From: a virus | Direction: 5' to 3' (one strand) | Length of the DNA: 39,311 nucleotides | Virus genome (UHGV): UHGV-0361196 | Position numbers and translations under genes: made by a program | Notes under the pieces: model-generated | What the model was told of the DNA's origin: nothing | Database searches by the model: none | What the model saw: only the letters and a program-made list of their open reading frames with translations | Shown here: positions 1 through 15,635 of the stretch, piece after piece | Layout: each line of letters starts with the position of its first letter | Position numbering within the stretch: the stretch's first letter is position 1

Positions 1-274
1 CGAAACGTCAAAACCGCGGCTCCCGAAACTCAACGGGTGATGTTCTTTAAAAATCAGGATTTATTTCAGGCTCCGGCAATACGCATTTATGTGTTCTGTC
101 AGTCATCCGGCTGGCAGGTAATGAAAACGCAGGAACAGAAGGAGGAAAACACCGGAAAGCGTCAGATGCAGATATGAAAAAAAGCAGGTCAGGGACCTGC
201 TTAATCCACGCCGTAAGAATTGTGCGACCAATTTTGACGGCATTGTTAACCAATTTGTCATAAGGAATCCATTT

Positions 275-505
275 ATGACTGTAAGCATTGTTTCACCTTC
301 CGCAGCGGCTGTAAAGCCCCGCCGTCATCCCCGTTTCAGACGCGAAGACATCCCCGCGCCGGAACTTGACCCCGTGCTGAAAGCCTTCGGGCGACACATT
401 GCCCGGAGTTTTCGCCGGGGGCGTGGTGTACACATCCCCGCCATGAAAAACACGGCCTTCGGGCAGGTGCTCCGCACACTCGAACTGAAACGCGCTTTTA
501 ACTGA
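275..505 (+). CDS. hypothetical small basic protein (76 aa), flanking replicon
   Basis: ORF with AGGA about 10 nt upstream of the ATG; Arg-rich; no recognisable motif; weak call. Confidence 0.3.
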   Translation: MTVSIVSPSAAAVKPRRHPRFRREDIPAPELDPVLKAFGRHIARSFRRGRGVHIPAMKNTAFGQVLRTLELKRAFN

Positions 506-556
506 TGAGGTGAGCCGCCCCGCGAGGGGCGGCAACAGACGGAAGGAGAACATTTT

Positions 557-1918
557 ATGACATTAGCAGCAATCACCATGACCGCCCCGGAAGCCGCCAG
601 CCCTGTGCAGATGTACCGCGCGACCTACTCACCGGATGACAACAAACTGCGCCTGTATGCCGTGTCACGTCTTGACCCGGAGACGTATAAAAAAGTGCAT
701 GATGCCGGTTTCCGCTGGGCACCAAAACAGGCGCTGTTTGTCGCGCCAGCCTGGACACCGGGCCGGGAAGACGTGCTCCTCTCACTTGCCGGAGAGATTG
801 AGGATGAAGACAGCACGCTCGCTGAACGTCAGGAAGCACGGGCGGAGCGGTTTACCGGATACAGCGGAAAGCGGGCCAGTGAATCCGCACAGGCACTTGA
901 TGAAGTGGAAAGACTGGCCGCGATGATCCCGCCCGGTCAGCCCATTCTTGTGGGGCATCACAGCGAACGCCGCGCCCGTCGTGATGCGCAGCGTATTGAA
1001 AACGGCATGAAACGTGCCGTGATGCTCTTTGAACGTGCGGAATACTGGGAAGAACGTGCGCGGTCGGCACTGCTTCACGCGAAGTATAAAGAACGTCCGG
1101 ACGTTCGCTGGCGTCGTATCAAAAAAATCGAAGCTGATTTGCGCAAGGCTGAAAAGACCATCGCGCAGTCGCAGAAATATCTGACGATGTGGCGGGCTGA
1201 ATCGCTGGATCTGAATATGGCAAAACTCATCAGCAGTCATGACCATATCAGCGCCTGTTTCCCGCTGGATACGTATCCGCGCCCGGCAGAAAAAAGCCAG
1301 TATGAAGGAAGTCGATCGTTATGGTCGGCCCTGGATGATGACATCATCACCACGGAGCAGGCCCGCGAAATTGCGATCCGCTGTCATGAACGGCAGATTC
1401 AGCATCAACAACGCTGGGTTAACCACTATCAGAACCGCCTGATCTATGAGCGTGCCATGCTGGACGAAAGCGGCGGCGTGGTTACCCGGACACAGGATTT
1501 TGAGCCGGGCGGACAGGTTTTCAGCCGGGGCGAGTGGCTGACCATCATCCGCGTGAACAAAAGCAACGGGGCGGTGAGTTCAGTCACAACGCCGAATTAC
1601 AGTTTTCTCGGGTACAGCGGCACGATGAAAGTGACGCCCGATCGCATCACGGACTACAAAGCACCATCGGCAGAAGAGGCTGCCGTCGCCAGTCAGGCCG
1701 CGAAGCGTCCGCCGGTAGTCAACTATCCGGGGGAAGGTTTCCGGGAAATGACAAAGGCACAGTGGGCCGCCCTGCCCCGGGACTGTAAGGCCGTGCGCAG
1801 TGTGGCAGAGACAGAAGACCACGGGGCATACCGCTACCGCCGCACAATGGACAATAATTTCCGCCTGGTGAATGTGTATATCACCGACATGAAAATCACG
1901 GAAATCCCGCAGAAATAA
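557..1918 (+). CDS. hypothetical protein (453 aa), flanking replicon
   Basis: Long ORF with RBS GGAAGGAG 8 nt upstream of ATG 557; charged Arg/Glu-rich central region; no catalytic motif recognised; immediately upstream of the orphan methyltransferase. Confidence 0.7.
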   Translation: MTLAAITMTAPEAASPVQMYRATYSPDDNKLRLYAVSRLDPETYKKVHDAGFRWAPKQALFVAPAWTPGREDVLLSLAGEIEDEDSTLAERQEARAERFTGYSGKRASESAQALDEVERLAAMIPPGQPILVGHHSERRARRDAQRIENGMKRAVMLFERAEYWEERARSALLHAKYKERPDVRWRRIKKIEADLRKAEKTIAQSQKYLTMWRAESLDLNMAKLISSHDHISACFPLDTYPRPAEKSQYEGSRSLWSALDDDIITTEQAREIAIRCHERQIQHQQRWVNHYQNRLIYERAMLDESGGVVTRTQDFEPGGQVFSRGEWLTIIRVNKSNGAVSSVTTPNYSFLGYSGTMKVTPDRITDYKAPSAEEAAVASQAAKRPPVVNYPGEGFREMTKAQWAALPRDCKAVRSVAETEDHGAYRYRRTMDNNFRLVNVYITDMKITEIPQK

Positions 1919-1964
1919 GGTATATCCCCCCGGGAAATCCCCGGGGGATGACGGAGATAATGAT

Positions 1965-2528
1965 ATGCACAGTCAGTTAAAAGAACGTATCCGGCTGATG
2001 CGCGCAAGGCTGGATAACGCCGCGCCGGTTGCTGAAATCCGGGCTGAATCTCAGCTTTTTGTGACTCCTGCCCCGGTCTGTGATCGCCTGGTGATGCTGG
2101 CGGAGATCAGCAACCGTGATCACATTCTGGAACCCTCTGCCGGCACCGGGGCCATACTGCGGGCGATTCGTCATGTCGCGCCGGGGGCCATGTGTGATGC
2201 GGTGGAGATTAACAGCGGGCTGGTCCGGTATCTGCGGGATAATTTTAACGGTGTCAGGGTTCAGTGTGGCGACTTCATGGAATGGCAGCCGGTGCAGTAT
2301 TACAGCCGGGTTATCATGAATCCGCCGTTCAGCCACGGGCAGGATATCCGGCATATCCTGCGGGCCTTTTCCCTGTTGCGTCCGGGTGGCGTGCTGGTCG
2401 CCGTCTGTCTCAACGGACCACGCCAGCAGGAGAAGCTGTTACCGTTTTCTGACGTCCGCGAGGAGCTGCCGCGCGGCACGTTTGCTTATACCGATGTCCC
2501 GACGATGATTATTCGTCTGCGTGCCTGA
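1965..2528 (+). CDS. SAM-dependent DNA N6-adenine methyltransferase, orphan (no adjacent endonuclease)
   Basis: SAM-binding motif EPSAGTGA (aa 56-63) followed by catalytic NPPF (aa 119-122), the motif order of gamma-class amino-methyltransferases; RBS GGAG upstream. Confidence 0.7.
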   Translation: MHSQLKERIRLMRARLDNAAPVAEIRAESQLFVTPAPVCDRLVMLAEISNRDHILEPSAGTGAILRAIRHVAPGAMCDAVEINSGLVRYLRDNFNGVRVQCGDFMEWQPVQYYSRVIMNPPFSHGQDIRHILRAFSLLRPGGVLVAVCLNGPRQQEKLLPFSDVREELPRGTFAYTDVPTMIIRLRA

Positions 2529-2599
2529 TGACACAGGGCCGGCGGGAGGATAAATGCCTGTCTGCCCGCGCCGGGAAAAAACGCGCGCCGGTGGCGCTG

Positions 2600-2632
2600 A
2601 AAGGGGCCGCGCTCACGCGCCGCCCCTTTCAT
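2600..2632 (+). terminator. candidate intrinsic terminator downstream of methyltransferase gene
   Basis: 12-bp GC-rich stem (AAAGGGGCCGCGC / GCGCCGCCCCTTT, one mismatch) with loop TCAC, followed by TTTCATT. Confidence 0.45.
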
Positions 2633-2694
2633 TACGCGGACGTTCTGATGGGGGCTTCTGTTTCTTCATGCCTGTCATTTGTCTGTTACTTATA

Positions 2695-2870
2695 GAGAGG
2701 TAAATCATTTGATACTGCTGAAAAATCCGGGAGGAAAGTGGATCAAACGGGATTTGATGGGATAAAACAAACAGTTATGACGTAAAACAGTGTTATGCGC
2801 ACAACATGTGATTTGATACTACTGTCGCAAAGAAAGCTAAAAACGAAAAAATATTTGATACTACTGATTT
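2695..2870. repeat. left end (attL-like) with three putative transposase-binding repeats
   Basis: TTTGATAC at 2708..2715, 2812..2819 and 2854..2861 in the same orientation; L1 is about 100 bp from the adjacent L2/L3 pair, as in Mu attL; the reverse complement GTATCAAA recurs three times at the right end. Confidence 0.6.
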
Positions 2871-2895
2871 CTGCGATTTTAACGTTTTAAACAGG

Positions 2896-2932
2896 TTAAA
2901 AAACCAGCCGCGGGCTATTGGAATTAGCCCGC
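2896..2932 (-). terminator. candidate intrinsic terminator of repressor gene
   Basis: 8-bp stem GCGGGCTA / TAGCCCGC (2910..2917 / 2925..2932) with 7-nt loop; plus-strand A-run 2898..2903 gives a U-run after the hairpin on the minus strand; stem overlaps the stop codon. Confidence 0.4.
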
Positions 2933-3508
2933 CTTCGATTCTAAACTACTTGAGAGTTTATCGCTTTCAATTTCTGCCAAAATCTCTCTAACTCTTTCAT
3001 CCGATAAATGATCTAAAAGTAGAGCTGCTGCACGTTTTCGTCCTTCAAGTTGGATTAGTTCTTGATTCTCTGGTTCAAGTAACCGTGACAAGTACTTAGC
3101 TCCATTTAGCGCGAGGATTTTTGATAATCGCTCTGCCTCTGATGCTTCTAAAGCACTTAGTATAGCAAGAAGGCGCTGTAGCGTTATATCTAGGGGCAAT
3201 TGGACGTTTTCATCTATTTTAGGTGATATTGGTTCTATATCCTCCTTGCCAAAAACAAGCCAATCAATGCTCACCCCTTCTGCAAAAGCAATCTGACTAG
3301 CTACTTGTAGAGATGGTGTCGCATCTTTCTCAAAGTAGTTGTTAAGTGTTGAGAACGGTAGCCCCCACGCCTTCGCCACGGCAGTCTTGGAGCGCCCGCG
3401 CATTAGCATGGCTAGGCGCTCTTTAATGCTTTCTTTTTGAAACACAGGAAAAGAAAAATCACTTTCTTTTTCAGTGCTTCTTTCTTTTCTGTTAACCATA
3501 TGATTCAT
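2924..3508 (-). CDS. prophage repressor with XRE/lambda-cI-like HTH (Mu c functional equivalent)
   Basis: Only minus-strand gene in the prophage, divergent from ner as in Mu; HTH-like segment SKTAVAKAWGLPFSTLNNY followed by GVSIDWLVFG; start ambiguous (ATG 3508 or 3499 preferred over the GTG at 3559 that gives the 211-aa track ORF). Confidence 0.7.
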   Translation of the reverse strand: MNHMVNRKERSTEKESDFSFPVFQKESIKERLAMLMRGRSKTAVAKAWGLPFSTLNNYFEKDATPSLQVASQIAFAEGVSIDWLVFGKEDIEPISPKIDENVQLPLDITLQRLLAILSALEASEAERLSKILALNGAKYLSRLLEPENQELIQLEGRKRAAALLLDHLSDERVREILAEIESDKLSSSLESKAG

Positions 3509-3648
3509 AAAGAAATATCCTTTTGTAGATAAAAACCACCAAAGAAAGAGATAAAACACCTTTACTTTTCTTTTGTAGTGATCAAATATTTATCTGTAGA
3601 GATTATCCGGCGGTGTTATCCGCGCAGATAACTTTTAAGGATAAACGA
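3509..3648. promoter_or_regulatory. divergent early/repressor promoter-operator region
   Basis: Intergenic between divergent repressor and ner; repeated CTTTTGTAG-like motifs (about 3514..3530 and 3569..3585; variant TATCTGTAGAG about 3591..3601) and near-palindrome GTTATC-CGCGCA-GATAAC at 3615..3632; lies about 0.8-0.95 kb from the left end, where Mu has its operators and transposition enhancer. Confidence 0.5.
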
Positions 3649-3885
3649 ATGATGTCTATAAATGAAGTTGTTAAACAGGACTGGCACCCCGCGCATGTTG
3701 TCGCGGCGGTGCATGTAAAAGGTTTTACTTTACGCTCTCTGTCCATTGAAGCCGGTTTAAACCAGGATTCTTTAAAGAATGCCCTGTACCGCAAATGCCC
3801 AAAATATGAGCGCATTATTGCTGATGCTATTGGTGTTGCGCCGGAGGAGATCTGGCCCAGCCGTTACGCTCGTAAGGTGGCATAA
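3649..3885 (+). CDS. ner: Ner-like DNA-binding early regulator (Ner/Nlp family)
   Basis: C-terminal region ...ADAIGVAPEEIWPSRY resembles the Ner/Nlp family signature; RBS AGGA 9 nt upstream of ATG 3649; the track ORF from 3613 is probably a 5' over-extension. Confidence 0.8.
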   Translation: MMSINEVVKQDWHPAHVVAAVHVKGFTLRSLSIEAGLNQDSLKNALYRKCPKYERIIADAIGVAPEEIWPSRYARKVA

Positions 3886-3887
3886 AA

Positions 3888-5975
3888 ATGTTTGTATCAG
3901 TTAATGAGCTTGTAGGGTTACCAGGTATGCCGGGAACTGCGCAAGGGGTGCGGTATTCCATAAGGAAACTGGCCTCATCTGAGCATTTCAGGCGCAAACG
4001 TGCGGGTTCAAAAACCATTGAATACAGCATCGACTGCCTCCCTCCGGTTACACAACGGGCGTTACGTGAGCGACATGTAGCTCAACTGATGGCAAGCGCC
4101 CCGCGGGAGATAACTACCCAGCCTCCTGTAAAGCGTGAACGCAAACAAAATGTTGTACAGCCTGTTGAGGCATATCGCGGTTCGCCACAATTGGTAGAAG
4201 AGCGTCTGAATGCGCTTACGGAAAATCAACGTAAAGTTGCAGAAGCGCGCATTGCTCTTGTCTGTGAAGTTCTACGAATTAGCCAGGAGCCGGGATTCAG
4301 TTGTGCCAGCGCTATACGTTTTATTGTGTCGCGGTTAGCGCAGGGTAACCTGGAAGAACGCCTGGAATCTTTGGTCATTACTGCTAATGCCCGTAAAGGA
4401 AAAGAGCGAACTCTGAGCGCAATTACGCTCAAACGTTGGATAGCTGCGTTTAACAAAGCACAGAATGCCGCAGAACGACTGCTGTTACTGGCACCAGGAA
4501 AGCGCGACGAAATAAAACCGGAAGAAATTAGCTGGCTGCCTGAATTTCTGGCGCAGTATCGTCAGGCTAACGGCAGGCCTATGTCTGAAGCCTATGAGGA
4601 TTTTGTCGCTGATTGGCAGCGTCGCCATGCGGACGAACCATACATGCTGGAGGTGATGCCTTCCTATGATGTTGTCCGGTATGCCATGAAAAAACTGCCG
4701 GAAGTGGTGAAACAAAAAGGGCGCGTTACCGGCAGTGAATACCGTCAGCTTGAAGGATTCACCCGCCGCGACTGGACAGCTATGCCGGTGAATTATGTCT
4801 GGATTGGTGACGGTCACGGTATGAAGCTGAAATGTGCACATCCGATCCACGGGCGTCCATTCTCACCGGAAGTTACATTTGTGATCGACGGTGGAACCCG
4901 GTTTGTTGTTGGCTGGAGTCTTGACCTTGCCGAGAACGTGTTCGCCGTTGCCGGTGCGATACAGCACGGCATTCGCAACCACGGAAAACCGTTTCTGTAT
5001 TACTCGGATAATGGTTCTGGTGAAACGGCTGACATACTGGACAAAGAGGTCGTGGGTATTCTGCCCCGCCTGGGGATTAAACACCCTACCGGTATTGCCG
5101 GTAATCCACAGGGGCGCGGCATTATTGAACGCCTGAACCGGACACTGCCGATGCGTATAGCCAGGAGGTATCGCACCTATTTTGGCAAGGGTGCTGACCG
5201 GGAATCGTTGCGTGTACTTAACCGTGATCTGCGTTCAGCGTTTAACGCCATGCAACAGGACAAGCCTCTGAACGACCGCCAGAAAGCTGCAATGCGCGAG
5301 CTACCATCGTGGGCGGAGCTTATTGAGGCTATTCGTGAAGGCGTGGAATGGTACAACAACCGCCCGCATTCTGAGCTGCCAATGAAACCGAACGGGCGGC
5401 ATTACAGCCCGGCAGAGTTCAGAAAAAAACGCCTGGCAGAAGAAGACACCGAAATTGAGTGGCTGAGTGATCTTGAGCTGCGCGACATGTTCCGCCCGAT
5501 GGTGGAACGCCCGGTAAGACGGTGCGAAATTCAGTGGCTGAACAATATTTACTACGCGCCGGAGTTGCGTGACGAACACGGTCGCAAAGTACTTATCAGT
5601 TATGACATTCATGACGCCGAGCGAATTACGGTACGTCGCAAGGACGGCAGCTTTATCTGTGAGGCGATATGGAACGGCAATAAACGCACAGCCTTTGCTG
5701 TCAGTGCTGAATATCACAAACAACAGCAGCGTATTAAAGGAATGCGCAAACGTGCTGAGGAAAAAATTCGTGATGCTGAGGATGAAGGCATTCAGATACT
5801 GGAGCACAAACAGGCTGAACCCTGGCTGGATAATGTTTATCGCCCGGTTGGCAATACGGTAACCATCCAGCAACAGGATTATGAGGAGGATTACGACGAA
5901 GATTATGAACGCGATTTCAGGCTGGGTTTGCAGAAGCTTGTAGCCATACAGGAACAGGATGATCCGCTGGCCTGA
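3888..5975 (+). CDS. DDE transposase, MuA family (divergent from Mu A)
   Basis: 695 aa; N-terminal enhancer-binding-like domain (VNELVGLPGMPGT...KTIEY) and candidate DDE residues in IGDGHG, YYSDNGSG and GIIERLNRTL, aligned by eye to Mu A catalytic core; acidic C-terminus; RBS AAGGTGG. Confidence 0.9.
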   Translation: MFVSVNELVGLPGMPGTAQGVRYSIRKLASSEHFRRKRAGSKTIEYSIDCLPPVTQRALRERHVAQLMASAPREITTQPPVKRERKQNVVQPVEAYRGSPQLVEERLNALTENQRKVAEARIALVCEVLRISQEPGFSCASAIRFIVSRLAQGNLEERLESLVITANARKGKERTLSAITLKRWIAAFNKAQNAAERLLLLAPGKRDEIKPEEISWLPEFLAQYRQANGRPMSEAYEDFVADWQRRHADEPYMLEVMPSYDVVRYAMKKLPEVVKQKGRVTGSEYRQLEGFTRRDWTAMPVNYVWIGDGHGMKLKCAHPIHGRPFSPEVTFVIDGGTRFVVGWSLDLAENVFAVAGAIQHGIRNHGKPFLYYSDNGSGETADILDKEVVGILPRLGIKHPTGIAGNPQGRGIIERLNRTLPMRIARRYRTYFGKGADRESLRVLNRDLRSAFNAMQQDKPLNDRQKAAMRELPSWAELIEAIREGVEWYNNRPHSELPMKPNGRHYSPAEFRKKRLAEEDTEIEWLSDLELRDMFRPMVERPVRRCEIQWLNNIYYAPELRDEHGRKVLISYDIHDAERITVRRKDGSFICEAIWNGNKRTAFAVSAEYHKQQQRIKGMRKRAEEKIRDAEDEGIQILEHKQAEPWLDNVYRPVGNTVTIQQQDYEEDYDEDYERDFRLGLQKLVAIQEQDDPLA

Positions 5976-5982
5976 ATAAAAA

Positions 5983-6006
5983 AACAGTCCGCGGGAACGG
6001 ACTGTT
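5983..6006 (-). terminator. hairpin between A and B, terminator-like on the minus strand
   Basis: 9-bp stem AACAGTCCG / CGGACTGTT with 6-nt loop; a run of 7 A precedes it on the plus strand (U-run after the hairpin on the minus strand); no T-run after it on the plus strand. Confidence 0.35.
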
Positions 6007-6048
6007 AAACGAAGGAAACAAAGCTGATTTGAATAAACGGAGAATAAT

Positions 6049-6981
6049 ATGACCGATATTAATGATGTTTTCAACACGATTAACACACTTATTACTGACG
6101 GCGTAAAAACACAAAGCGCTATTGCTAAAGAAGCGGGGGTGTCGGAGGCCACTCTTTCTGAACTTCGCAAAGGCCGTTACAAAGGTGATACCGAAGGGAT
6201 GCATGACAAATTACTGATGTGGCATCAGAGCTGGCAAAAAAGTCTGGAGTTACCTGGCGCACCACAACTTGTGGAAACACAAACCCTCCGTGATTTGCGC
6301 GAGCTGTTTCAGACCGTGCGTGTTATGGGCTGTATCAGCGTTCTGGTTGGTGTGCCGGGTGTTGGTAAAACCGTTGCGGCCCGTGAATACAGTAACCGTG
6401 TATCTAATACCTGGATGGTGACCCTTTCCCCTGCACACTCAACAGTGACTGAGTGTCTGCTGGAGCTGGCAGACGCGCTGGGAATTGATAATCCGCAAAG
6501 AAATAAAGGCGCATTGACCCGCGCCATTCGCAAAAAACTGAATGGCACACGCGGTCTGGTTATTGTGGATGAAGCTGACCACCTGAGCATGGACGGGCTG
6601 GAGCAGTTACGCGCCATTCAGGATGCAACCGGCGTCGGGATGGTATTGATTGGCAACCCACACCAGTTAGCCAAAGCCACACACCGGGGAACAGATGACC
6701 TTGCACGTTTGTTCAGTCGTTTCGCCAGAACAAAGCAACTACGTAAAGCCAAAAAGGCTGACGTGGTGGCAATTGCGAAAGCCTGGGGCATTGAGGGCGA
6801 AGATGAATTATCACTCATGCAGAGCATCGCGGAAAAACCAGGTGCATTACGTGTATTAACTCATACGCTGAATCAGGCGTGGCTGGCTGCCAGCGGGAAA
6901 GGCGTTCCTCTATCCAAAGGCTACATTAAAGCAGCTTTTAAAGAGGTTTACAGCAACCCGAAATTACTGAACTGGTGGTAA
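6049..6981 (+). CDS. MuB-like AAA+ ATPase transposition target-capture protein
   Basis: 310 aa; Walker A GVPGVGKT and Walker B VIVDEADH; N-terminal HTH-like region; directly after transposase gene as in Mu; RBS GGAGA. Confidence 0.9.
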   Translation: MTDINDVFNTINTLITDGVKTQSAIAKEAGVSEATLSELRKGRYKGDTEGMHDKLLMWHQSWQKSLELPGAPQLVETQTLRDLRELFQTVRVMGCISVLVGVPGVGKTVAAREYSNRVSNTWMVTLSPAHSTVTECLLELADALGIDNPQRNKGALTRAIRKKLNGTRGLVIVDEADHLSMDGLEQLRAIQDATGVGMVLIGNPHQLAKATHRGTDDLARLFSRFARTKQLRKAKKADVVAIAKAWGIEGEDELSLMQSIAEKPGALRVLTHTLNQAWLAASGKGVPLSKGYIKAAFKEVYSNPKLLNWW

Positions 6982-6992
6982 GGGGATAAATA

Positions 6993-7220
6993 ATGATGTC
7001 ACGAAATATAAAAATGGCAACGGATGCGCAGAACTGGTTACAGGCGCGCGGGAGTCATGTAAATGAATCATATCTCGGCGTGGCGCGTCCGATTCTTGAA
7101 ATCACTTACCCACCGGTGGAACTGGTAAAAAACGCGGTCAGAATTATGGAGCATAAGTCCGGGGTGGCCCGTTCTGTATGGACGGCCCGTCTTAATGGTT
7201 GCCAGATTATCTGGAGATAA
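6993..7220 (+). CDS. hypothetical early protein (75 aa), positional equivalent of Mu kil
   Basis: First ORF after B; function not established from sequence. Confidence 0.5.
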
Positions 7221-7222
7221 CG

Positions 7223-7444
7223 ATGTGTATTAAAGCTGAAAAATATATTGAATGGGTTAAACACTGTCAGTGCCACGGGGTGCCGCTGACGACATATAAA
7301 TGCCCAGGATGCGGTGAACAGATTATGACGCAATGCTCACCCGAAAAGGAAATTCGGGATTCCCTGACATGTTGTCCGTGGTGCAGCGCAGTTTTCTTTA
7401 AGCAGGTAAAAGGCGCGAAGGTAAAAGCCAGCGCAGTTATTTAG
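7223..7444 (+). CDS. small zinc-ribbon protein (about 73 aa)
   Basis: Cys pairs CQCHG, CPGCG and CCPWC; RBS GGAGA about 10 nt upstream of ATG 7223; the track ORF from 7199 is an in-frame 5' extension. Confidence 0.5.
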   Translation: MCIKAEKYIEWVKHCQCHGVPLTTYKCPGCGEQIMTQCSPEKEIRDSLTCCPWCSAVFFKQVKGAKVKASAVI

Positions 7445-7464
7445 AATCAATAAGGAGAAGAAAA

Positions 7465-7734
7465 ATGGCAAAGGTTATCTTTGAGTTTACATGGCTGGAA
7501 AGTAGTGACAGTTGCAATGGGCGCAGAGAAGTTCTGGATGCAAAAGCATGTCTTGCAGATATCTCGCCAACGGAAAATACCGGGCCTCATGATTTACTGG
7601 CAAATATAGTCCTGACTATGGCTCCTGAAATTATTAAAAAGGCCAAAGATGAGATGCTGACCACTATGAAGAAAGTGGGTATGGAAGCTGAATGTGATTT
7701 AGTACCACGTCCGGTGAATGTGGTTAAACATTAA
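7465..7734 (+). CDS. hypothetical early protein (89 aa)
   Basis: Strong RBS AAGGAGAAG upstream of ATG; no motif recognised. Confidence 0.55.
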   Translation: MAKVIFEFTWLESSDSCNGRREVLDAKACLADISPTENTGPHDLLANIVLTMAPEIIKKAKDEMLTTMKKVGMEAECDLVPRPVNVVKH

Positions 7735-7754
7735 TTCGCAAAGGAACGCTGACA

Positions 7755-8174
7755 ATGAACGTCAAAATCCGAAATGAAATTCAGGCATTAATTCGAATTA
7801 AAATGCGTAATAACAATCCAGGAGAATTACGCGAGTTTATTTTCACCCGCAAAGTTTATGAGCATGGTGAAACTACTTATCTGATTACATTTGACCATTA
7901 CAGCATTTGTGCGCGTTATTGTGGCGAAAACATCTCTAATGCCATCACGTTTGGCGGTGCGTTTAACGAGGATTTATGGGAATACGTCATGGACCGCGAA
8001 TACATCTGCGCATCAGACCCTGAAGCCCGTGAAATGTGGCAGCGTATCTGGCGCGATTACCGGTTAATGGCAAAAGGCTGGGCGCGCTGCTGTTATTCCT
8101 CGCTTGCCCTGAAAGCGGTTCAGTTATCGCTGCGGCATATTCCGGCATCACTGCACGAGCCTCTGCTGTACTGA
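7755..8174 (+). CDS. hypothetical early protein (139 aa)
   Basis: RBS AAGGAA upstream of ATG; no motif recognised. Confidence 0.55.
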   Translation: MNVKIRNEIQALIRIKMRNNNPGELREFIFTRKVYEHGETTYLITFDHYSICARYCGENISNAITFGGAFNEDLWEYVMDREYICASDPEAREMWQRIWRDYRLMAKGWARCCYSSLALKAVQLSLRHIPASLHEPLLY

Positions 8175-8474
8175 ATGGTGACTGACATGAAGTGTAATCG
8201 TAAGCGCTGGTCACGCGAAGACCGGGAATTTATCGAAGCCAGCGTCGGGAAAATGACCATTGAAGAAATGGCGGAAAAACTGAACGTTGCCACAACCGCC
8301 CTCCGGGCACATGCCAGAAGGCACGGAATATCGTTGTGTGCATACCGGGTCAGTGAGCACGACAAATATTTGTGTCGTGAACTTTATAAAGAAGGACTGG
8401 ATATTCATGTCATTGCCCGAAAGATGGAATTAAGCAATCGAGCTGTATCCAGCATTGTATACAGCGGATATTAA
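8175..8474 (+). CDS. hypothetical early protein with HTH-like segments (99 aa)
   Basis: Two helix-turn-helix-like stretches (TIEEMAEKLNVATTALRAHARRHGI and LDIHVIARKMELSNRAVSSIV); start could instead be ATG 8187. Confidence 0.5.
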   Translation: MVTDMKCNRKRWSREDREFIEASVGKMTIEEMAEKLNVATTALRAHARRHGISLCAYRVSEHDKYLCRELYKEGLDIHVIARKMELSNRAVSSIVYSGY

Positions 8475-8493
8475 TTAACAGGAGCTTTAATTT

Positions 8494-9018
8494 ATGGCTA
8501 AACCAGCAAAACGTATCAAAAGTGCCGCAGCGGCTTATGTGCCACAAAACCGCGATGCGGTGATTACCGATATTAAACGCATCGGGGATTTACAGCGCGA
8601 AGCATCACGTCTGGAAACGGAAATGAATGATGCCATCGCGGAAATTACGGAGAAATTTGCAGCCCGGATTGCACCGATTAAAACCGATATTGAAACCCTT
8701 TCAAAAGGCGTTCAGGGATGGTGTGAAGCGAACCGCGACGAACTGACAAACGGCGGCAAAGTGAAGACGGCGAATCTTGTCACCGGTGATGTATCGTGGC
8801 GGGTCCGTCCACCCTCAGTAAGTATTCGTGGTATGGATGCAGTGATGGAAACGCTGGAGCGTCTTGGCCTGCAACGCTTTATTCGCACGAAGCAGGAAAT
8901 CAACAAGGAAGCGATTTTACTGGAACCGAAAGCGGTCGCAGGTGTTGCCGGAATTACTGTTAAATCGGGAATTGAAGATTTTTCCATTATTCCGTTTGAA
9001 CAGGAAGCCGGTATTTAA
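8494..9018 (+). CDS. gam: Gam, host-nuclease inhibitor (DNA end-binding)
   Basis: 174-aa product matches my recollection of phage Mu Gam nearly residue for residue; RBS AGGAG. Confidence 0.9.
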   Translation: MAKPAKRIKSAAAAYVPQNRDAVITDIKRIGDLQREASRLETEMNDAIAEITEKFAARIAPIKTDIETLSKGVQGWCEANRDELTNGGKVKTANLVTGDVSWRVRPPSVSIRGMDAVMETLERLGLQRFIRTKQEINKEAILLEPKAVAGVAGITVKSGIEDFSIIPFEQEAGI

Positions 9019-9115
9019 TACCACCATTAATATTTAATTAATTCACATTCGTTTAATTATGGCGCGATGCGTCAGGGGACTACTCGCGCCTTAATCAGAA
9101 CCGGAGAGAATGAAA

Positions 9116-9664
9116 ATGAAAGCATGTGCTTATTTTAAACTGAGTGACGAAGCCGCTAACGGTTATACGATTCGCTGGCTAAAAGAGGTTTCTGTTAAGC
9201 GTGGTGAGATTATTGAGTCATTACAGCAATCAGTGAAAGCAATCGGTGTGTCTTTGTCTGGTGACAAAGGGCCTGAGAGGGTTACGCATGTCTGGTTTAG
9301 CTACTTACCACCGGAAGGATGGGGGATTAAATCAAGGACACTTTTCATTGGTGATATTCAGTTATGGGGCGCAATGCCGGATATGACAATACCGGCAGGT
9401 CGTGAGTACGGGAAGCTCATCCGGGACTGTGAAAATCAGCTCGAAAAACACCCGGATTTTCAGCGCTGGCTGTGCAATGAACTTAACGTGGCTACCGACG
9501 TTGACCTGTTTGACATCAGGTCCGTGTGGAAAATGCACCACAGCCGTGACGGATTCAGCATTTTGTTTGCAGTGTACCTTCTGGCTGGCGAAGTGAAGGG
9601 ACCGGTTCCCGCCGAATGCCAGCGCATTAAACATTCTGAATTTGTGGCGCTGACGGAGGAATAA
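9116..9664 (+). CDS. hypothetical early protein (about 182 aa)
   Basis: RBS GGAGAG 9 nt upstream of ATG 9116 (track start 9110 is 2 codons upstream); no motif recognised. Confidence 0.55.
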   Translation: MKACAYFKLSDEAANGYTIRWLKEVSVKRGEIIESLQQSVKAIGVSLSGDKGPERVTHVWFSYLPPEGWGIKSRTLFIGDIQLWGAMPDMTIPAGREYGKLIRDCENQLEKHPDFQRWLCNELNVATDVDLFDIRSVWKMHHSRDGFSILFAVYLLAGEVKGPVPAECQRIKHSEFVALTEE

Positions 9665-9667
9665 CCG

Positions 9668-10207
9668 GTGATTGATGCAAAAGTTCTGAATGGTGTCAGC
9701 ACATTATTACGGGCTTACGGGCGTCTGACCTGCGGGGTTCTGGCTGAAAAAATGAAGATGCTGCCCTCGTCAATGGTTTATTTCCTGCGTGATGCGGTTG
9801 ATGCAGGTGTGCTCACCGAATGCAACGGATTTTATGACGTTCCGCGCCCGCGTCCGACGCTGCCTGTAAGACGAAACGCAACTGAGCAGCCTGCTGTTGA
9901 TGATGCGGTGTGGTGCAACTGGCGTCGCTCATTACCCTGGGTGGAAGGTAATACCATCCCCGCTCTGGCAAAAGAGTTTGCAACGGGCGTGCTGACCTGT
10001 GAATCCGTTCACATCGTTGCAGAAGTGGATAACAGGATGTGCGAACAGGGAATGCCCCGTTTTGTGATGGCTTATATCGATATCCGGCTGGGGCGGTTTA
10101 TTTGCAGTTCAAGCGCCTGGAATATCACCGACCATGTACTGCGTTATCTCATCATTGATTTTTCATCAGCACCGGGTGTGGTGCAGGAGGCTGGTTGTGA
10201 AATTTGA
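9668..10207 (+). CDS. hypothetical early protein (179 aa), possible winged-helix N-terminus
   Basis: GTG start with GGAGG upstream; N-terminal helix-rich segment. Confidence 0.5.
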   Translation: MIDAKVLNGVSTLLRAYGRLTCGVLAEKMKMLPSSMVYFLRDAVDAGVLTECNGFYDVPRPRPTLPVRRNATEQPAVDDAVWCNWRRSLPWVEGNTIPALAKEFATGVLTCESVHIVAEVDNRMCEQGMPRFVMAYIDIRLGRFICSSSAWNITDHVLRYLIIDFSSAPGVVQEAGCEI

Positions 10208-10892
10208 AGACTGGGGTATTGATAAAAGTTGTGGCCGGGACGTCCTGGTGTACAAAAACTGTAGCGTGATTGAAGGAGAAGATGCCTGGCAGGTTCTGGA
10301 TATACTTCGTTCTGCTTTATGCAGAGCTGGCTATGTTACGCCAGCGTCAGTTAATGGCGGAACTGCCACTACCTGTATCAGAAATCAACTTTATAGTTTT
10401 TATACAGCCTACAACCGATGGTTAAAGAATGGGGCAATGGAGACGGGCGATGATGTATTTACCCGGGCTGCCGGATTATGTGCCAATGCTTACGATTATT
10501 TTGAATCAATCGGAGCAGACAGCGAGGCTGCGCTAGAACAATTACATGCGGATTTTGTCGCGAGTGGGCTGGATGAATCCCTGCCATTTAATGTAGATAA
10601 CGTGCACTACCATGATGAATGCCTACATGACAGATGCCACCTGAATTCAGCACGTGTGGCATGGGTTGAAAAACACTGTATTAGTTCTGATTCAGAAATA
10701 ACGGGGAAAAAGACAGTCGGTGAAAATTCGTATTCGTGGCTGGGGAAATTTACCACGGTGAAACAGGAATGCCCGACCTGCGGTAATGAAAACCCTGAAT
10801 ATCTGAAAGAGTGCCCTCATTGTGGCGGGCAGAAATGCAACCACTGCGATATGGGCGATGACACAGCGTGCATGAATTGTGAAGGTGAGTGA
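10197..10892 (+). CDS. Cys-rich protein with C-terminal tandem zinc-ribbon motifs (about 231 aa)
   Basis: Four CxxC motifs in the last 40 aa (CPTCG, CPHCG, CNHCD, CMNCE) plus a His/Cys cluster HYHDECLHDRCH; GTG 10197 preceded by GGAGG at 7 nt is preferred over the overlapping ATG at 10134. Confidence 0.5.
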   Translation: MKFEDWGIDKSCGRDVLVYKNCSVIEGEDAWQVLDILRSALCRAGYVTPASVNGGTATTCIRNQLYSFYTAYNRWLKNGAMETGDDVFTRAAGLCANAYDYFESIGADSEAALEQLHADFVASGLDESLPFNVDNVHYHDECLHDRCHLNSARVAWVEKHCISSDSEITGKKTVGENSYSWLGKFTTVKQECPTCGNENPEYLKECPHCGGQKCNHCDMGDDTACMNCEGE

Positions 10893-10893
10893 T

Positions 10894-11202
10894 ATGAATA
10901 ATGGTGTATTTTCAAAATCAGAAGAGCTTGCCGCCCTGCTGATTGCCGGTGGTTTGCCGAAAAAAGAAGTGCATGACTTTGTGAATTTTGTATATAACCC
11001 GTCTCATGAAAAAGCTATTGATGAGGTCATGGCGTACCGGTTTGGCATTATTGCTGAGTCACTGAGTCCTCACTGGATTATTGAAAATCTCCGCACTATT
11101 GCTGATGGCAAAGATAAATCAGCAGCCGTTGCTGCATTGGATGTGTTACGGCAAATGAGTCTGAAATTTTATCCTGAATTTATTCTGAGGGCCGCAAAAT
11201 GA
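10894..11202 (+). CDS. hypothetical early protein (102 aa)
   Basis: ATG 10894 with AGGTGA upstream, directly after the stop of the upstream gene. Confidence 0.5.
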   Translation: MNNGVFSKSEELAALLIAGGLPKKEVHDFVNFVYNPSHEKAIDEVMAYRFGIIAESLSPHWIIENLRTIADGKDKSAAVAALDVLRQMSLKFYPEFILRAAK

Positions 11203-11501
11203 ACAATGAAGATAAATTTACTCCCCTTAATATTGATAACGTCATGGCTGAAAAAAGGATGCTGGAACGTGTTCGCGCTATCGTTGAATATGGTATTAAG
11301 CATGAACTCACCGCCAGAGAAGTCCGTGACATTATCAACCGCGAAATGAATCGTCTGGAAACAGTAGTGGCACTGCAAAATGAAACAGCCCGCGAGGAGT
11401 ACATCCGCCGCAGGCTGGGGTTATCAGACCAGGATATTGTTACTGACGCTCATGTGTTTGAGGCTTTTGAGATCCGTCAGCATCTGGGCCTTACGAACTG
11501 A
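11199..11501 (+). CDS. hypothetical early protein (100 aa)
   Basis: ATGA start/stop overlap with upstream gene; charged helical product. Confidence 0.5.
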   Translation: MNNEDKFTPLNIDNVMAEKRMLERVRAIVEYGIKHELTAREVRDIINREMNRLETVVALQNETAREEYIRRRLGLSDQDIVTDAHVFEAFEIRQHLGLTN

Positions 11502-11552
11502 TGTGTAAATTCAGGCGGTGTTGCAGCACCGCCTCTTTCCGGAGGTACGATC

Positions 11553-12104
11553 ATGAGCCGCACATCCCTGATTAAATTAATCCATGTCGCCCGTCGGGAG
11601 CTACAACTCGACGACGACACTTACCGCGCCTTTCTGATGCAGAAAACGGGCAAAACCAGTTGCCGCGAGCTGACGGTAACGCAACTGGAACAGGTGCTCG
11701 ATGCCATGAAAGAACGCGGCTTTAAGAAGCTGATTAAACATCCACGTCGCCGCTTTAAGGGGTATGTCACGCCCCGCGAGAAGGTGTATAAAATCTGGCA
11801 GCAGATGGCAGAAGACGGTTTTATTACCGATGGCGGTGATGTGGCGCTGGACAGATATGTTCAACGCCTGACCACGAAACGTAATGGCGGACAGGGTGTT
11901 TCCACGCTGGCGTGGTGTCATGGCGACACCCTGTTGATTGTTCTCGAAACTCTCAAGCAGTGGCATATCCGCTGTATTCGTGAAGCCTTTTCCCGTCACG
12001 GGCTTCCGTTGCCGGTCAGTCCGTCCGGGCGTGAACTGCGCGGCTATGATGCCATGACGGCGGCTTATGCCCATGCCAGAAAGACACGGAGGATGGCACA
12101 ATGA
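11553..12104 (+). CDS. gemA: GemA-like early protein (Mu gp16 family)
   Basis: 183 aa beginning MSRTSLIKLIHVARRELQLDDDTYRAF, which I recognise as the Mu GemA family; sits immediately upstream of mor as in Mu; RBS GGAGG. Confidence 0.75.
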   Translation: MSRTSLIKLIHVARRELQLDDDTYRAFLMQKTGKTSCRELTVTQLEQVLDAMKERGFKKLIKHPRRRFKGYVTPREKVYKIWQQMAEDGFITDGGDVALDRYVQRLTTKRNGGQGVSTLAWCHGDTLLIVLETLKQWHIRCIREAFSRHGLPLPVSPSGRELRGYDAMTAAYAHARKTRRMAQ

Positions 12105-12490
12105 CGGAAGATTTATTTGGTGATTTGCAGGATGACACCATCCTGGCACATCTTGACAATCCCGCAGAGGATGCGTCACGCTTTCCGGCACTGCTGGCGG
12201 AGCTGAACGATTTACTGCGCGGGGAGTTGTCCCGGCTGGGTGTTGATCCTGCCCATTCACTGGAGATTGTTGTGGCTATCTGTAAGCATCTGGGTGGCGG
12301 TCAGGTCTACATTCCACGCGGTCAGGTTCTGGACTCGCTGATTCGGGATTTGCGTATCTGGAATGATTTTAACGGTCGCAACGTCAGCGAACTGACCACC
12401 CGTTATGGTGTCACTTTCAATACGGTTTACAAGGCCATTCGCCGGATGCGACGGCTGAAATACCGCCAGTACCAGCCCTCACTTCTGTAA
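12101..12490 (+). CDS. mor: Mor, middle-operon transcription activator
   Basis: 129 aa, Mor/C family with C-terminal HTH (...NGRNVSELTTRYGVTFNTVYKAIRR); near-identical to Mu Mor as recalled; paralogous to C at 13283..13705. Confidence 0.9.
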   Translation: MTEDLFGDLQDDTILAHLDNPAEDASRFPALLAELNDLLRGELSRLGVDPAHSLEIVVAICKHLGGGQVYIPRGQVLDSLIRDLRIWNDFNGRNVSELTTRYGVTFNTVYKAIRRMRRLKYRQYQPSLL

Positions 12491-12495
12491 ACAGT

Positions 12496-12520
12496 AAAGC
12501 CGGTTAATCCGGCTTTTTTT
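12496..12520 (+). terminator. intrinsic terminator after mor
   Basis: 8-bp stem AAAGCCGG / CCGGCTTT with loop TTAAT, followed by a run of 7 T. Confidence 0.7.
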
Positions 12521-12567
12521 ACGTCCTCAATATCCTGTGATGAATAACCGTACCGGGGGAAATCATC

Positions 12568-12786
12568 ATGGGTAAAGGCTGGAATGCATCCTTTCATCTT
12601 GGCAGACGTGAGCGGCTGCGTCAGGAGGTTTTGCACCGTGTCGCCGGTGGGCCACGGCCTGCGCCCCGCGACTATACCGGTCATGATGGCACCCACGGCA
12701 GTTATTACATGAAAGGCTGGCAGTCAGTTGATATGCCGGAAATTCTTCATCATTGCCTGCTTTACAGGGAGAAACATTATGTCTGA
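12568..12786 (+). CDS. hypothetical protein (72 aa)
   Basis: ORF with GGGGGA upstream; His/Arg-rich; weak call. Confidence 0.4.
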   Translation: MGKGWNASFHLGRRERLRQEVLHRVAGGPRPAPRDYTGHDGTHGSYYMKGWQSVDMPEILHHCLLYREKHYV

Positions 12787-13141
12787 GCGTTCTGCTCGTC
12801 AGTGGCCTGATTTTTTATCGGTGGTATTACTGGCGCTGTTATTGTGGATAAGTCTGTTTTGTGGCTGGCGCGCGCTGATGTTTTGCTGTGCCTCGGTTTT
12901 CAGTGTTGCTTTATGTGTTGCCGCTGATTGTCTGGATGCGCTGATAATGAGCTGCCGGGTGCCTGAACATTTTGCCCGGTTCGTCTGGCCTCTGACCTGG
13001 CTGGGGAGTCTGTCCGGGCTGGGATTAGCCGTGATGGCAACGTCTCAACTGAAAACGGGTCCTGAGCATGTCATCTGGGCGCTGGCCGGATTGCTGACGT
13101 TCTGGCTCTCCTTTCGTTTTCGCGCTCGTCTGTTCGGGTAA
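12779..13141 (+). CDS. multi-pass membrane protein, holin candidate (about 120 aa)
   Basis: ATG 12779 preceded by GGGAGA; three to four hydrophobic segments; lies between mor and C, where Mu carries a small membrane protein. Confidence 0.5.
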   Translation: MSERSARQWPDFLSVVLLALLLWISLFCGWRALMFCCASVFSVALCVAADCLDALIMSCRVPEHFARFVWPLTWLGSLSGLGLAVMATSQLKTGPEHVIWALAGLLTFWLSFRFRARLFG

Positions 13142-13150
13142 AGGGGCACC

Positions 13151-13270
13151 ATGTACAGAAAATTCAGTGATGAATGTTTCGGGCCGTCCACGCTGATGAG
13201 TGCGATAAAAGTGATTGCCCTTGTGGTTCTGATAACCATCAGTGCCGTGGTGTATCTTTCTGTCTGTTAA
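13151..13270 (+). CDS. small single-pass membrane peptide (39 aa), not in ORF track
   Basis: ATG 13151 preceded by AAGGGG at 7 nt; translation MYRKFSDECFGPSTLMSAIKVIALVVLITISAVVYLSVC has one TM helix; fills the gap between flanking genes. Confidence 0.4.
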   Translation: MYRKFSDECFGPSTLMSAIKVIALVVLITISAVVYLSVC

Positions 13271-13282
13271 CCGGGGGAAAAT

Positions 13283-13705
13283 ATGCAGCATGATTTATTT
13301 GAACACGATCCGGCAATTCGCCAGTTAATCGGACATATTGATAACATCCCGGCCCCGGAACTGGAATCACGCTGGCCCCGTTCGGTGGTTGATCTGATTG
13401 ATGTTCTGGAAAACGAACTGAAACGCCAGAACGTCAGCAATCCCCGTGAGCTTGCCCGTAAACAGGCCGTTGCCCTGTCCTGTTTTCTGGGCGGACGGCA
13501 GTTTTACATCCCCTGCGGCGATACGATCCTGACCGCGTTACGTGACGATTTGCTTTACTGCCAGTTTAATGGTCGTAACATGGAAGAACTGCGTCGCCAG
13601 TACCGCCTGTCCCAGCCGCAGATCTACCAGATTATTGCCCGCCAGAGAAAGCTGCATACACGACGTCATCAGCCTGATCTGTTCTCACCTGAAAGCCCAA
13701 AATAA
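13283..13705 (+). CDS. C: C, late-gene transcription activator (Mor/C family)
   Basis: 140 aa, paralogous to Mor (...NGRNMEELRRQYRLSQPQIYQIIARQRK); near-identical to Mu C as recalled; RBS GGGGGA. Confidence 0.9.
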   Translation: MQHDLFEHDPAIRQLIGHIDNIPAPELESRWPRSVVDLIDVLENELKRQNVSNPRELARKQAVALSCFLGGRQFYIPCGDTILTALRDDLLYCQFNGRNMEELRRQYRLSQPQIYQIIARQRKLHTRRHQPDLFSPESPK

Positions 13706-13727
13706 CCGGCATCCTGCCGGTTATTTC
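13702..13727 (+). terminator. candidate terminator/attenuator after C
   Basis: Perfect 10-bp stem ATAACCGGCA / TGCCGGTTAT with 3-nt loop, followed by TTATTTCC. Confidence 0.45.
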
Positions 13728-13796
13728 CTGTCACCATAATCCCGCACCTGCCATCTGATTTTTTAGACTGCCATCAGCGCATTTTTTCAGGGAAGC

Positions 13797-14685: not shown

Positions 14686-14887
14686 TGCAGAACTGACGGA
14701 AGCAACGCCCGTTCCGCCCATGCCACAGCCCCTGACGTGGGGAGCATCCCTTCTCTGGAATGCTGACCTGCTGATGGCGCTCGGGCAGTGCAACCGCGAC
14801 AAGGCATCAGTCCGGGAACAGGAGACCCGGAGGAAAGAAATTTATGAACGAAGACCAGAACCGGGCGGTGGCGCTGCTGCTCGCTGA
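14546..14887 (+). CDS. o-spanin (Rz1-like outer-membrane lipoprotein), overlapping the i-spanin in another frame
   Basis: Lipoprotein signal MMPNKKLQPLLPVTIAALVLCLPLLLTGC with lipobox LLTGC; Pro-rich mature part; begins inside the i-spanin gene and extends beyond it. Confidence 0.6.
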   Translation: MMPNKKLQPLLPVTIAALVLCLPLLLTGCGNSKNAPVPSVVILPETDAELTEATPVPPMPQPLTWGASLLWNADLLMALGQCNRDKASVREQETRRKEIYERRPEPGGGAAAR

Positions 14888-15624: not shown

Positions 15625-15635
15625 CAGGAGGCGTG

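Follow-up and report, generated by a model that had tools for sequence, protein, structure and literature searches.

What is the DNA that borders a Mu-like prophage on the left in the virus genome UHGV-0361196, and do its two main genes belong together? The window analyzed here is this entire stretch of 39,311 nucleotides (nt). A sequence-only reading of its first 2.7 kb had seen an orphan adenine methyltransferase with a large uncharacterized partner and GC-rich stem-loops between the genes, and had likened the arrangement to plasmid leading regions or other mobile DNA. In older annotation the two genes are named ydbA and ydcA, the latter being described as a "putative adenine-specific DNA methylase". 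We find the flank on F-like conjugative plasmids, and comparison with related loci points to YdbA and YdcA as the two parts of a single enzyme. Our overall explanation, which we regard as probable, is that of a leading-region cassette encoding a two-part adenine methyltransferase, with a start at an Frpo-class promoter repeat and a shut-off by the antisense RNA AS-pc01.

We compared the flank to plasmid and chromosome sequences. A megablast search with positions 1..2694 against PLSDB matched at least 5000 plasmid records, with a query coverage of at least 80% in at least 4583 of them and identities mostly between 95 and 99%. The matches are mainly conjugative plasmids of Escherichia and Klebsiella, and at least 3905 are predicted to be conjugative. 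With thousands of IncF (F-like) plasmids, positions 1..2691 share 98-99% identity. Complete E. coli genomes contain the flank at 6863 plasmid places versus 56 chromosomal ones (6919 in total). In plasmid pAPEC-O2-R (IncFIA/FII, MOBF), the cassette is located between an antirestriction gene and ssb-psiB-hok-oriT-traM and has the orientation of ssb and psiB. The gene order there, all on a single strand, starts with an M.EcoGIX-like "DNA methylase", DUF1380 and the antirestriction protein; after a 1-kb gap come an open reading frame (ORF) of 76 amino acids (aa), the DUF3560 gene (ydbA) and the methyltransferase gene (ydcA), and after a further gap of 0.6 kb ssb, DUF905, a ParB-like gene, psiB, hok, SLT and traM. 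The RefSeq plasmid NZ_CP024888 shows an identical arrangement around the cassette. Synteny in these two plasmids places the cassette on the first-transferred side of oriT and in the ssb/psiB orientation, oriT itself lying beyond the window. The F plasmid does not contain the ydbA/ydcA cassette, which is carried by most F-like plasmids.

No restriction endonuclease gene is annotated within 9 kb of the cassette in pAPEC-O2-R, within 1.5 kb in the RefSeq plasmid or in the window flank. Since the flank resides on plasmids in the reference set, with no restriction enzyme within 9 kb, it does not represent the conserved chromosomal core locus with a cognate restriction enzyme that the sequence-only reading had named as the contrary case. 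The likeness to a plasmid leading region proposed in that reading and its view of the methyltransferase as an orphan, here a 187-aa class I S-adenosylmethionine (SAM) methyltransferase ORF, are thus both borne out. With high confidence we assign 1..2691 and 39272..39311 to an accessory cassette segment in the leading region of an F-like IncF conjugative plasmid. The DUF3560 (ydbA) family has been catalogued as leading-region family 28, "Uncharacterized; DUF3560; Methyltransferase domain protein" (supplement of PMC11541004), and orphan methyltransferases are among the prominent leading-region functions (PMC11541004). The ydbA/ydcA flank is a standard copy of this catalogued and already known locus; the unusual feature of the window is the position of the Mu-like prophage.

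The plasmid part of the window is interrupted by this prophage (2692..39271, 36.6 kb), which carries a c repressor, ner, transposase A, com and mom. Its two junctions are:
2687..2691: left copy, TACTT, of a probable 5-bp target-site duplication; the junction is between 2691 and 2692
39272..39311, plus strand: plasmid resumes, with the right copy of the duplication, TACTG, at 39272-39276 and then the first bases of copy B of an Frpo-class repeat

The empty site in pAPEC-O2-R reads gtctgtTACTGatgttg / ...gtctgttaCTGATGTTGTTG..., and the last 40 bases of the window continue it. The phage has inserted at the very start of the Frpo-class repeat located ahead of ssb; downstream of the cassette, intact plasmids have repeat B and then ssb. 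The same phage, 100% identical at its end, is located in patD of E. coli S6, where it is bordered by a perfect 5-bp duplication, TTAAT. From this clean duplication, the phage ends can be set at ATAGAGAGG...GCGCGCTTTA. Among phage records, those of Yersinia phages vB_YpM_5 and vB_YpM_6 are the closest (96% identical). None of the 72,556 plasmids in PLSDB contains the phage part, and no plasmid or E. coli record spanning the plasmid/prophage junction was found. The window holds a Mu-like transposable prophage inserted into the leading region of an F-like plasmid. The last base of the plasmid flank is 2691, and not 2694 as had been read from the sequence. With the ydcA stop at 2528 and the prophage start at 2692, the gene pair ends 163 nt before the prophage, in good agreement with the 160 bp given earlier.

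We investigated how the two genes relate to each other. The features concerned are:
557..1918, plus strand: ydbA, 453 aa, with Pfam domain DUF3560 at residues 89-206 (E = 5e-37)
1924..1949, plus strand: intercistronic ydbA/ydcA hairpin with 12-nt arms (1924-1935/1938-1949) that are 92% complementary
1965..2528, plus strand: ydcA, 187 aa, class I SAM methyltransferase, equivalent to the C-terminal domain of fused proteins

An exhaustive search of cluster representatives returned 3885 relatives of YdbA at E ≤ 0.001, and those with 40-55% identity are mostly 620-750 aa long. YdbA is the counterpart of the N-terminal ~440 residues of fused DUF3560-methyltransferase proteins: as judged by BLASTP, 103 of the 267 proteins collected match both YdbA (approximately residues 1-440) and YdcA (approximately 480-670) in one chain. 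The fused layout of ~650 aa comprises a YdbA-like part that includes DUF3560, a proline-rich linker and a YdcA-like methyltransferase. A profile built from 36 fused proteins gave 2134 further matches at E ≤ 1e-10; the best 120 of these 2134 all have a precomputed match to Pfam PF12083 (DUF3560), and most of the 120 also to a methyltransferase family in the same protein. In a survey of 86 loci, with one genome per species, we found the genes fused in 50 and split but adjacent in 28, and the reverse order in none. Fused loci are present in Alpha-, Beta- and Deltaproteobacteria, Acidobacteria, Planctomycetes, Verrucomicrobia, Gemmatimonadetes and others, and in three loci examined (two of them near-identical) the fused gene adjoins relaxase and coupling-protein genes. 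In split loci, the methyltransferase gene is always located immediately downstream of the ydbA-like gene. Every Enterobacterales locus examined is split, with a gap of 43-93 nt, and the split maps to the linker, where the gene is interrupted: a stop codon comes first, then a conserved GC-rich hairpin, a ribosome site and the next start codon. Independent splits into adjacent genes occur in Sedimenticola, Roseibium, Paraburkholderia and Haliea.

Because the two parts are fused in 50 loci of many phyla and split in all Enterobacterales, ydbA and ydcA are best read as encoding one two-part enzyme, very probably the split form of a widespread fused protein. The large partner seen by the sequence-only reading is indeed present as a 453-aa ORF, but its link to the methyltransferase had been understated, as it would be the other half of the enzyme. 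In an AlphaFold2 model of a fused relative (predicted local distance difference test score, pLDDT, 90.5), the only stretch below 50 is formed by residues 442-446 in the linker, at the split point. The model of YdbA (pLDDT 83.5) is composed of an N-terminal alpha/beta domain, long helical hairpins that include DUF3560, and a C-terminal beta-rich domain. We found no solved structural relative of YdbA, and no similarity of it to known target-recognition domains or to HsdS. Some assemblies labeled Streptomyces morookaense, Oscillibacter, Ferruginibacter and Oscillospiraceae (L007-L010 in our survey) contain contigs with 99% identity to the ydbA-ydcA region of the E. coli plasmid; these contigs almost certainly represent contamination or mis-binned enterobacterial plasmid DNA.

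To which class does the methyltransferase belong? YdcA contains, in this order, VTPAP (motif X TP, residues 32-36), EPSAGTG (motif I, residues 56-62) and NPPF (motif IV, residues 119-122). The succession of motifs X (TP), I and IV (NPPF) is the pattern of gamma-class DNA amino-methyltransferases. In a 64-sequence alignment that includes YdcA, the N, P, P and F of motif IV are conserved at 90% or more. The closest solved relative by sequence is M.TaqI, with YdcA aligned to its catalytic domain residues 22-164 (E = 5e-6) and the part that holds the motifs to residues 22-122. HsdM subunits are further matches, and the RNA enzymes METTL5, DIMT1/KsgA and Erm match with similar Z. YdcA matches only generic class I SAM methyltransferase families in Pfam, the Type II MTase and mad2 models of PADLOC, and "DNA methyltransferase" families of PHROG. 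Its 187 aa align to the catalytic domain only, and a target-recognition domain was not found in it. Judged by its motifs, YdcA is a gamma-order N6-adenine-type methyltransferase catalytic core. A homology to M.EcoGIX was considered and rejected: BLASTP of YdcA against the M.EcoGIX-like 227-aa methylase of pAPEC-O2-R gave an E value of 0.2 with motif fragments only, and the latter protein matches PF01555 (1e-39), which YdcA does not. The two types co-occur. A beta-class N6_N4 methylase of the M.EcoGIX-like kind (224-227 aa) and the DUF3560-methyltransferase are found together in IncF plasmids such as pAPEC-O2-R (L001, 4568-5251 and 9557-11529) and again in L005, a distant metagenome element of the TrwB/TrwC type (2213-2887 and 10001-11977). 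Conjugative elements may routinely carry two different entry methylases.

Next to the intercistronic hairpin, the coding strand contains two more structured elements:
514..533, plus strand: hairpin GCCGCCCC-GCGA-GGGGCGGC from a fold search, 8 bp and perfect (514-521/526-533)
2540..2638, plus strand: multi-hairpin element past the ydcA stop, with hairpins at 2585-2597 and 2598-2631, closed by CGCG (2567-2570/2635-2638)

A third simple hairpin is formed by 182-190/194-202 (9 bp, perfect, with an A-run ahead). We scored folding energies against 200 dinucleotide shuffles and obtained z = -4.1 around 514-533, z = -2.6 around 1924-1949, and z = -2.8 (plus strand) and -3.9 (minus strand) around 182-202. 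Each hairpin singly thus beats chance only moderately, and conservation in other genera is the stronger evidence. The hairpin at 1924-1949 begins 6 nt past the ydbA stop, at the point of the ydbA/ydcA split, and has an equivalent in all 14 Enterobacterales split loci compared. Across these loci 96% of the cells are paired, five of the nine pairs show changes on both sides, and none of 500 shuffles attains the observed conservation values. The alignment indicates that the junction hairpin is under structural conservation with compensatory changes. The hairpin at 514-533 is located 9 nt past the stop of the 76-aa ORF and 23 nt ahead of the ydbA start; it is present, with a GNGA loop, in the window and in close relatives only (L011-L014 and L068). 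In the element at 2540-2638, RNAalifold predicts 31 pairs, 11 of them with compensatory changes, across eight genera. It matches no Rfam family and has no match in F, being unique to the cassette. It may represent the 3' end of the mRNA, belong to the region of the single-strand promoter, or be an RNA gene. In the Mixta and Pantoea loci (L018-L021), where the ydbA-ydcA gap measures ~90 nt, a second perfect hairpin, GTGCCGGC-loop-GCCGGCAC, is found just ahead of the ydcA ribosome site, besides the conserved hairpin that follows the ydbA stop.

The three hairpins of the sequence-only reading are all real, although the larger set at 2540..2638 had been omitted from its list. The stem-loop that it placed between the two genes, at 1924..1949, is found there. 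The one at 514..533 exists as described, but as an ORF of 76 aa occupies 275..505, which the earlier inventory of a large ORF and a methyltransferase gene had overlooked, it separates this ORF from ydbA and not the named gene pair. The A-run-preceded hairpin given as 183..201 is present to within one base (182-202), but it belongs to an antisense RNA of the minus strand. We also considered the hairpins as intrinsic terminators of the coding strand and rejected this: the plus strand has no U-tract after any of them, and terminator-like contexts occur on the minus strand only. Folding of the ydbA/ydcA stems leans slightly toward the plus strand, with summed energies of -261 versus -247 kcal/mol for the minus strand.

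The antisense RNA and its putative target are defined by the following features:
275..505, plus strand: basic ORF of 76 aa (from the ORF list), first cistron of the cassette
179..280, minus strand: AS-pc01, Rfam RF02875 "Antisense to pHK01_035" (cmscan)
182..202, minus strand: predicted intrinsic terminator of AS-pc01, a stem-loop with a T7 run behind it (terminator scan); third stem of the Rfam model
287..315, minus strand: predicted sigma-70-type promoter for AS-pc01, with -35 TTTACA, a 17-nt spacer and an extended -10 TGaAACAAT (promoter scan)

AS-pc01 was identified by cmscan over model positions 1-99 of 99, on the minus strand from 280 to 179, with 79.4 bits versus a gathering score of 79 (E = 1e-14). 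The score is just over threshold here, and the orthologous sites in L001, L013, L014 and L068 reach 83-95 bits. Its fold gives z = -4.4, and a published AS-pc01 primer matches window positions 187-207. A promoter scan of 1-2900 yielded a single match, the promoter at 315-287 on the minus strand. This promoter predicts a start at ~280, where the Rfam match has its 5' end. The promoter hexamers are invariant across a six-genus alignment (A4), and the stems, that of the terminator with its A-run included, are also kept in six genera. AS-pc01 thus has its own predicted promoter and terminator on the antisense strand. The RNA covers the translation start of the 76-aa ORF, being complementary both to its Shine-Dalgarno sequence and to its start codon. 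On the sense strand, the ribosome site and start of this ORF form an 8-bp hairpin of their own at 257..279 (GTCATAAG...TTATGAC), which mirrors the 5' stem-loop of AS-pc01, a layout expected for loop-loop "kissing" antisense control. The 76-aa ORF is kept in L011-L014 and L068. It has a weak Pfam match to HU-CCDC81_euk_1 (21.5 bits, under the cut-off of 26.1), and some copies are labeled in RefSeq as "CCDC81 family HU domain 1-containing" or DUF4496; its product may be an HU-like DNA-binding protein. A 74-aa ORF upstream of the fused relative L005 was examined as a counterpart and discarded, as it shows no similarity and no Pfam match.

Upstream of the antisense gene, the window begins in a promoter repeat:
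1..60, plus strand: tail of repeat copy A, Frpo-class (class 1 single-stranded DNA promoter), recognized by its match to the other repeat copies
within this tail, plus strand: probable 3' end of a ydaB-like small ORF, stop at 48-50, read by hand
40..177, plus strand: small ORF, 45 aa from its ATG (from the ORF list)

The cassette thus runs from the repeat A tail through the small ORF, AS-pc01 (minus strand), the 76-aa ORF, ydbA and ydcA to the structured 3' element. The repeat of ~660 nt is present in three copies in pAPEC-O2-R (8398-9057, 11684-12361 and 17121-17783) and in two copies only in F. Window positions 1-266 correspond to 9001-9265 of L001, and positions 3-42 also match the repeats that directly precede ssb and the yfjA-side gene in both pAPEC-O2-R and F. 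Repeat copy A shares 92.7% identity over 438 nt with the F sequence directly upstream of ssb. Frpo/ssi single-strand promoters are located upstream of ssb and of yfjA-side genes, and leading-region operons show strong early induction in transconjugants (PMC12672017, PMC11541004). From homology and orientation, repeat A would drive transcription of the cassette. The names YdaB, YdfB and YgdA are those of the supplement of PMC11541004. The 45-aa ORF has no Pfam match and appears to be an internally shortened form of a 75-aa ORF of Klebsiella and Citrobacter plasmids (L013, 2903-3130; L014, 2878-3105); the AS-pc01 terminator is located directly beyond its stop codon. At the other end of the window, a run of TGCTAC repeats, ctgctactgctactgctactgct, occupies 39289..39311 at the start of the Frpo repeat, where L001 (11705-11725) has one unit followed by a CT-rich tract. 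The difference between the window and pAPEC-O2-R represents length variation at the edge of the repeat.

How might the cassette work? The incoming T-strand, which is the minus strand of the window, would serve as template, with the host polymerase starting at the Frpo hairpin of repeat A and producing one cassette mRNA. YdbA and YdcA would then assemble into a two-subunit adenine methyltransferase in which YdbA supplies substrate binding or targeting. In what is the least certain step, the enzyme would modify the entering plasmid DNA with low sequence specificity and protect it against restriction enzymes of the recipient. That DNA-protective methylation is the actual function of YdbA-YdcA appears plausible to us, with doubt having a slight upper hand. 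Once the complementary strand has been made, Frpo would fall silent and the duplex promoter at 315-287, for which the template strand would be absent earlier, would produce AS-pc01. By pairing with the ribosome site of the 76-aa ORF, AS-pc01 would shut down the cassette and thus act as a switch between the single-stranded and the double-stranded state. As they lack U-tracts on the coding strand, the GC-rich stem-loops after the cistrons are not terminators; most likely they would act at the RNA level, as barriers to 3'-exonucleases or as translation-coupling elements that set product ratios.

Several points weigh against this explanation. The searchable literature yielded no experiment on YdbA or YdcA, and we infer DNA methylation, complex formation and anti-restriction activity alike. 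Only the last ~60 nt of repeat A are in the window and the full copy is beyond it, so promoter usage by the cassette rests on homology; early leading-region expression has been measured on F, which has no cassette, and on pESBL. The stem of the hairpin at 514-533 is nearly invariant and thus provides no covariation evidence. Neither folding energies nor G-U pairs, compared between the plus and the minus strand, separate a function in RNA from one in single-stranded DNA. Finally, the target-site duplication of the prophage is imperfect, with TACTT and TACTG agreeing in four of five bases.

Other explanations can be given for the locus as a whole. The flank could be chromosomal DNA, either a chromosomal island or an orphan restriction-modification remnant beside the prophage, and 56 of the 6919 places in complete E. 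coli genomes are chromosomal, as is the gene occupied by the same phage in strain S6. The other 6863 places are on plasmids, pAPEC-O2-R is contiguous across both prophage flanks, and neither this plasmid nor NZ_CP024888 has a restriction gene nearby. The window contains no chromosomal sequence, even if a 2.7-kb flank alone would be compatible with a plasmid integrated into the chromosome. A chromosomal origin is therefore scarcely credible to us. The split could also be a sign of decay, with ydbA and ydcA as a broken, non-functional remnant and the hairpins as leftovers or independent terminators between unrelated genes. It is true that the ancestral-looking state is the fused one, that truncated or chimeric ydbA calls are common in databases, and that a methylome survey of ST131 lists only the M.EcoGIX-like enzyme for plasmid pEC958. 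Yet the same domain-boundary split is found in all 19 Enterobacterales-type loci, from about 16 genera, and both ORFs stay full length in intact loci, where identity drops to ~62% for YdbA and ~49% for YdcA. Each ORF has its own start and ribosome site, the catalytic motifs are intact, and the junction hairpin is structurally conserved and, like the others, not followed by a U-tract on the coding strand. With adjacent split genes also having arisen independently in Sedimenticola, Roseibium, Paraburkholderia and Haliea, we consider decay very unlikely.

Two further alternatives accept the cassette as functional and differ from our explanation in what its parts do. [quoted passage not shown] Such a roadblock to conversion is ascribed to a single-strand promoter structure of F in a 2026 preprint, the minus (T) strand folds the hairpins equally well, and the element at 2540-2638 abuts the Frpo repeat. 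However, each hairpin is found a few nt past a stop codon with a ribosome site close behind, as is typical of intercistronic mRNA hairpins, and several orthologues maintain the ydbA/ydcA stem by plus-strand G-U pairs, in place of which the T strand would have C-A mismatches. Of the three hairpins, one moreover belongs to an RNA gene, AS-pc01. A role in the transferred strand is in our view unlikely. Alternatively, YdbA-YdcA may methylate host RNA (for instance rRNA or tRNA adenine N6, like METTL5, KsgA or Erm) or a protein, and thus reprogram the recipient without protecting plasmid DNA. METTL5 is a small NPPF enzyme as well and needs a partner protein. The top NCBIfam matches are to Erm and KsgA, if far under the cut-offs, and JGI pipelines label the fused proteins as assorted non-DNA methyltransferases. 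This is opposed by the conserved QLFPTP...M motif X upstream of motif I, which together with the following NPPF forms the gamma-class DNA pattern, by the fact that the matching PADLOC and PHROG models are DNA methyltransferases, and by the association of the gene with relaxase-proximal regions of conjugative elements. A substrate other than DNA seems quite improbable. We favor the leading-region cassette with a split adenine methyltransferase and RNA-level hairpins.

In E. coli and Klebsiella, resistance genes travel mainly on F-like plasmids, whose leading regions determine if a plasmid, once transferred, withstands the defenses of the recipient. Reading ydbA and ydcA as a split enzyme provides a testable unit of two proteins with one activity, sets this enzyme apart from M.EcoGIX and joins it to a fused family that is widespread in conjugative elements of many phyla. 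In a more tentative and rather doubtful extension, YdbA-YdcA would form a second class of plasmid "entry" methylase beside M.EcoGIX, with the coiled-coil DUF3560 protein replacing a target-recognition domain and a strand-state switch (Frpo on, AS-pc01 off) confining expression to the first minutes after transfer. If so, the DUF3560 protein might, for example, dock the catalytic core on incoming single-stranded or newly replicated DNA, or on a replication or SSB factor of the host. Through the antisense RNA and the conserved stem-loops, it should be possible to study how early-entry genes are switched off. The view of ydbA/ydcA as the split form of a widespread fused enzyme, with a conserved junction hairpin and an antisense strand-state logic, may be new.

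We compared the cassette to systems already described. As working analogues of AS-pc01, FinP/traJ and Sok/hok share with it a cis-encoded antisense RNA of ~100 nt, stem-loops, an intrinsic terminator and an overlap with a ribosome site; its layout resembles that of FinP on traJ, which is encoded by the same plasmids. YdcA has in common with gamma-class enzymes such as M.TaqI, M.BseCI and type I HsdM the order of motifs X (TP), I and IV (NPPF). M.TaqI and M.BseCI carry a target-recognition domain and type I enzymes use HsdS, whereas YdcA has neither and is coupled to a DUF3560 protein instead. The cassette can also be set beside the polyvalent proteins of phages and conjugative elements (Iyer et al. 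2017), which include methyltransferase-containing giants of the P1 DarB type. In our PHROG matches, a YdcA-type domain is found inside phage protein families of 1259-3925 aa. A 1394-aa relative of the DUF3560-methyltransferase proteins carries Pfam LPD29, a "large polyvalent protein associated domain", and LPD7 is present on a neighbor of one fused gene. The module described here differs in being minimal, with two genes and no helicase or other effector domain.

M.EcoGIX, the one leading-region methylase that is known to have been characterized, resembles YdcA in being an orphan N6-methyladenine-type methyltransferase without the usual target-recognition domain, located in the early-transferred region of IncI1/IncF plasmids in the orientation of anti-defense genes. 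In M.EcoGIX, which belongs to the beta class, DPPY comes ahead of the SAM motif (Fomenkov et al. 2020, PMC7736820), and M.EcoGIX and M.BceJIII are single-strand-specific plasmid methyltransferases that have been proposed to shield the entering strand from restriction (PMC7736820). M.EcoGIX differs from YdcA by belonging to Pfam N6_N4_Mtase and by being encoded, in these plasmids, in a separate gene of 227 aa several kb upstream; YdcA has the opposite motif order, NPPF and a 453-aa partner. The closest overall correspondence is with leading-region anti-defense islands that contain Frpo/ssi single-strand promoters (Masai and Arai 1997; Bates et al. 1999; Samuel et al. 2024, PMC11541004; PMC12672017). 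The cassette shares with these islands the replicon type, the position from the antirestriction gene to ssb-psiB, the orientation and the flanking Frpo-class repeats. In the window, a prophage parts the cassette from ssb; otherwise there is no difference in kind.

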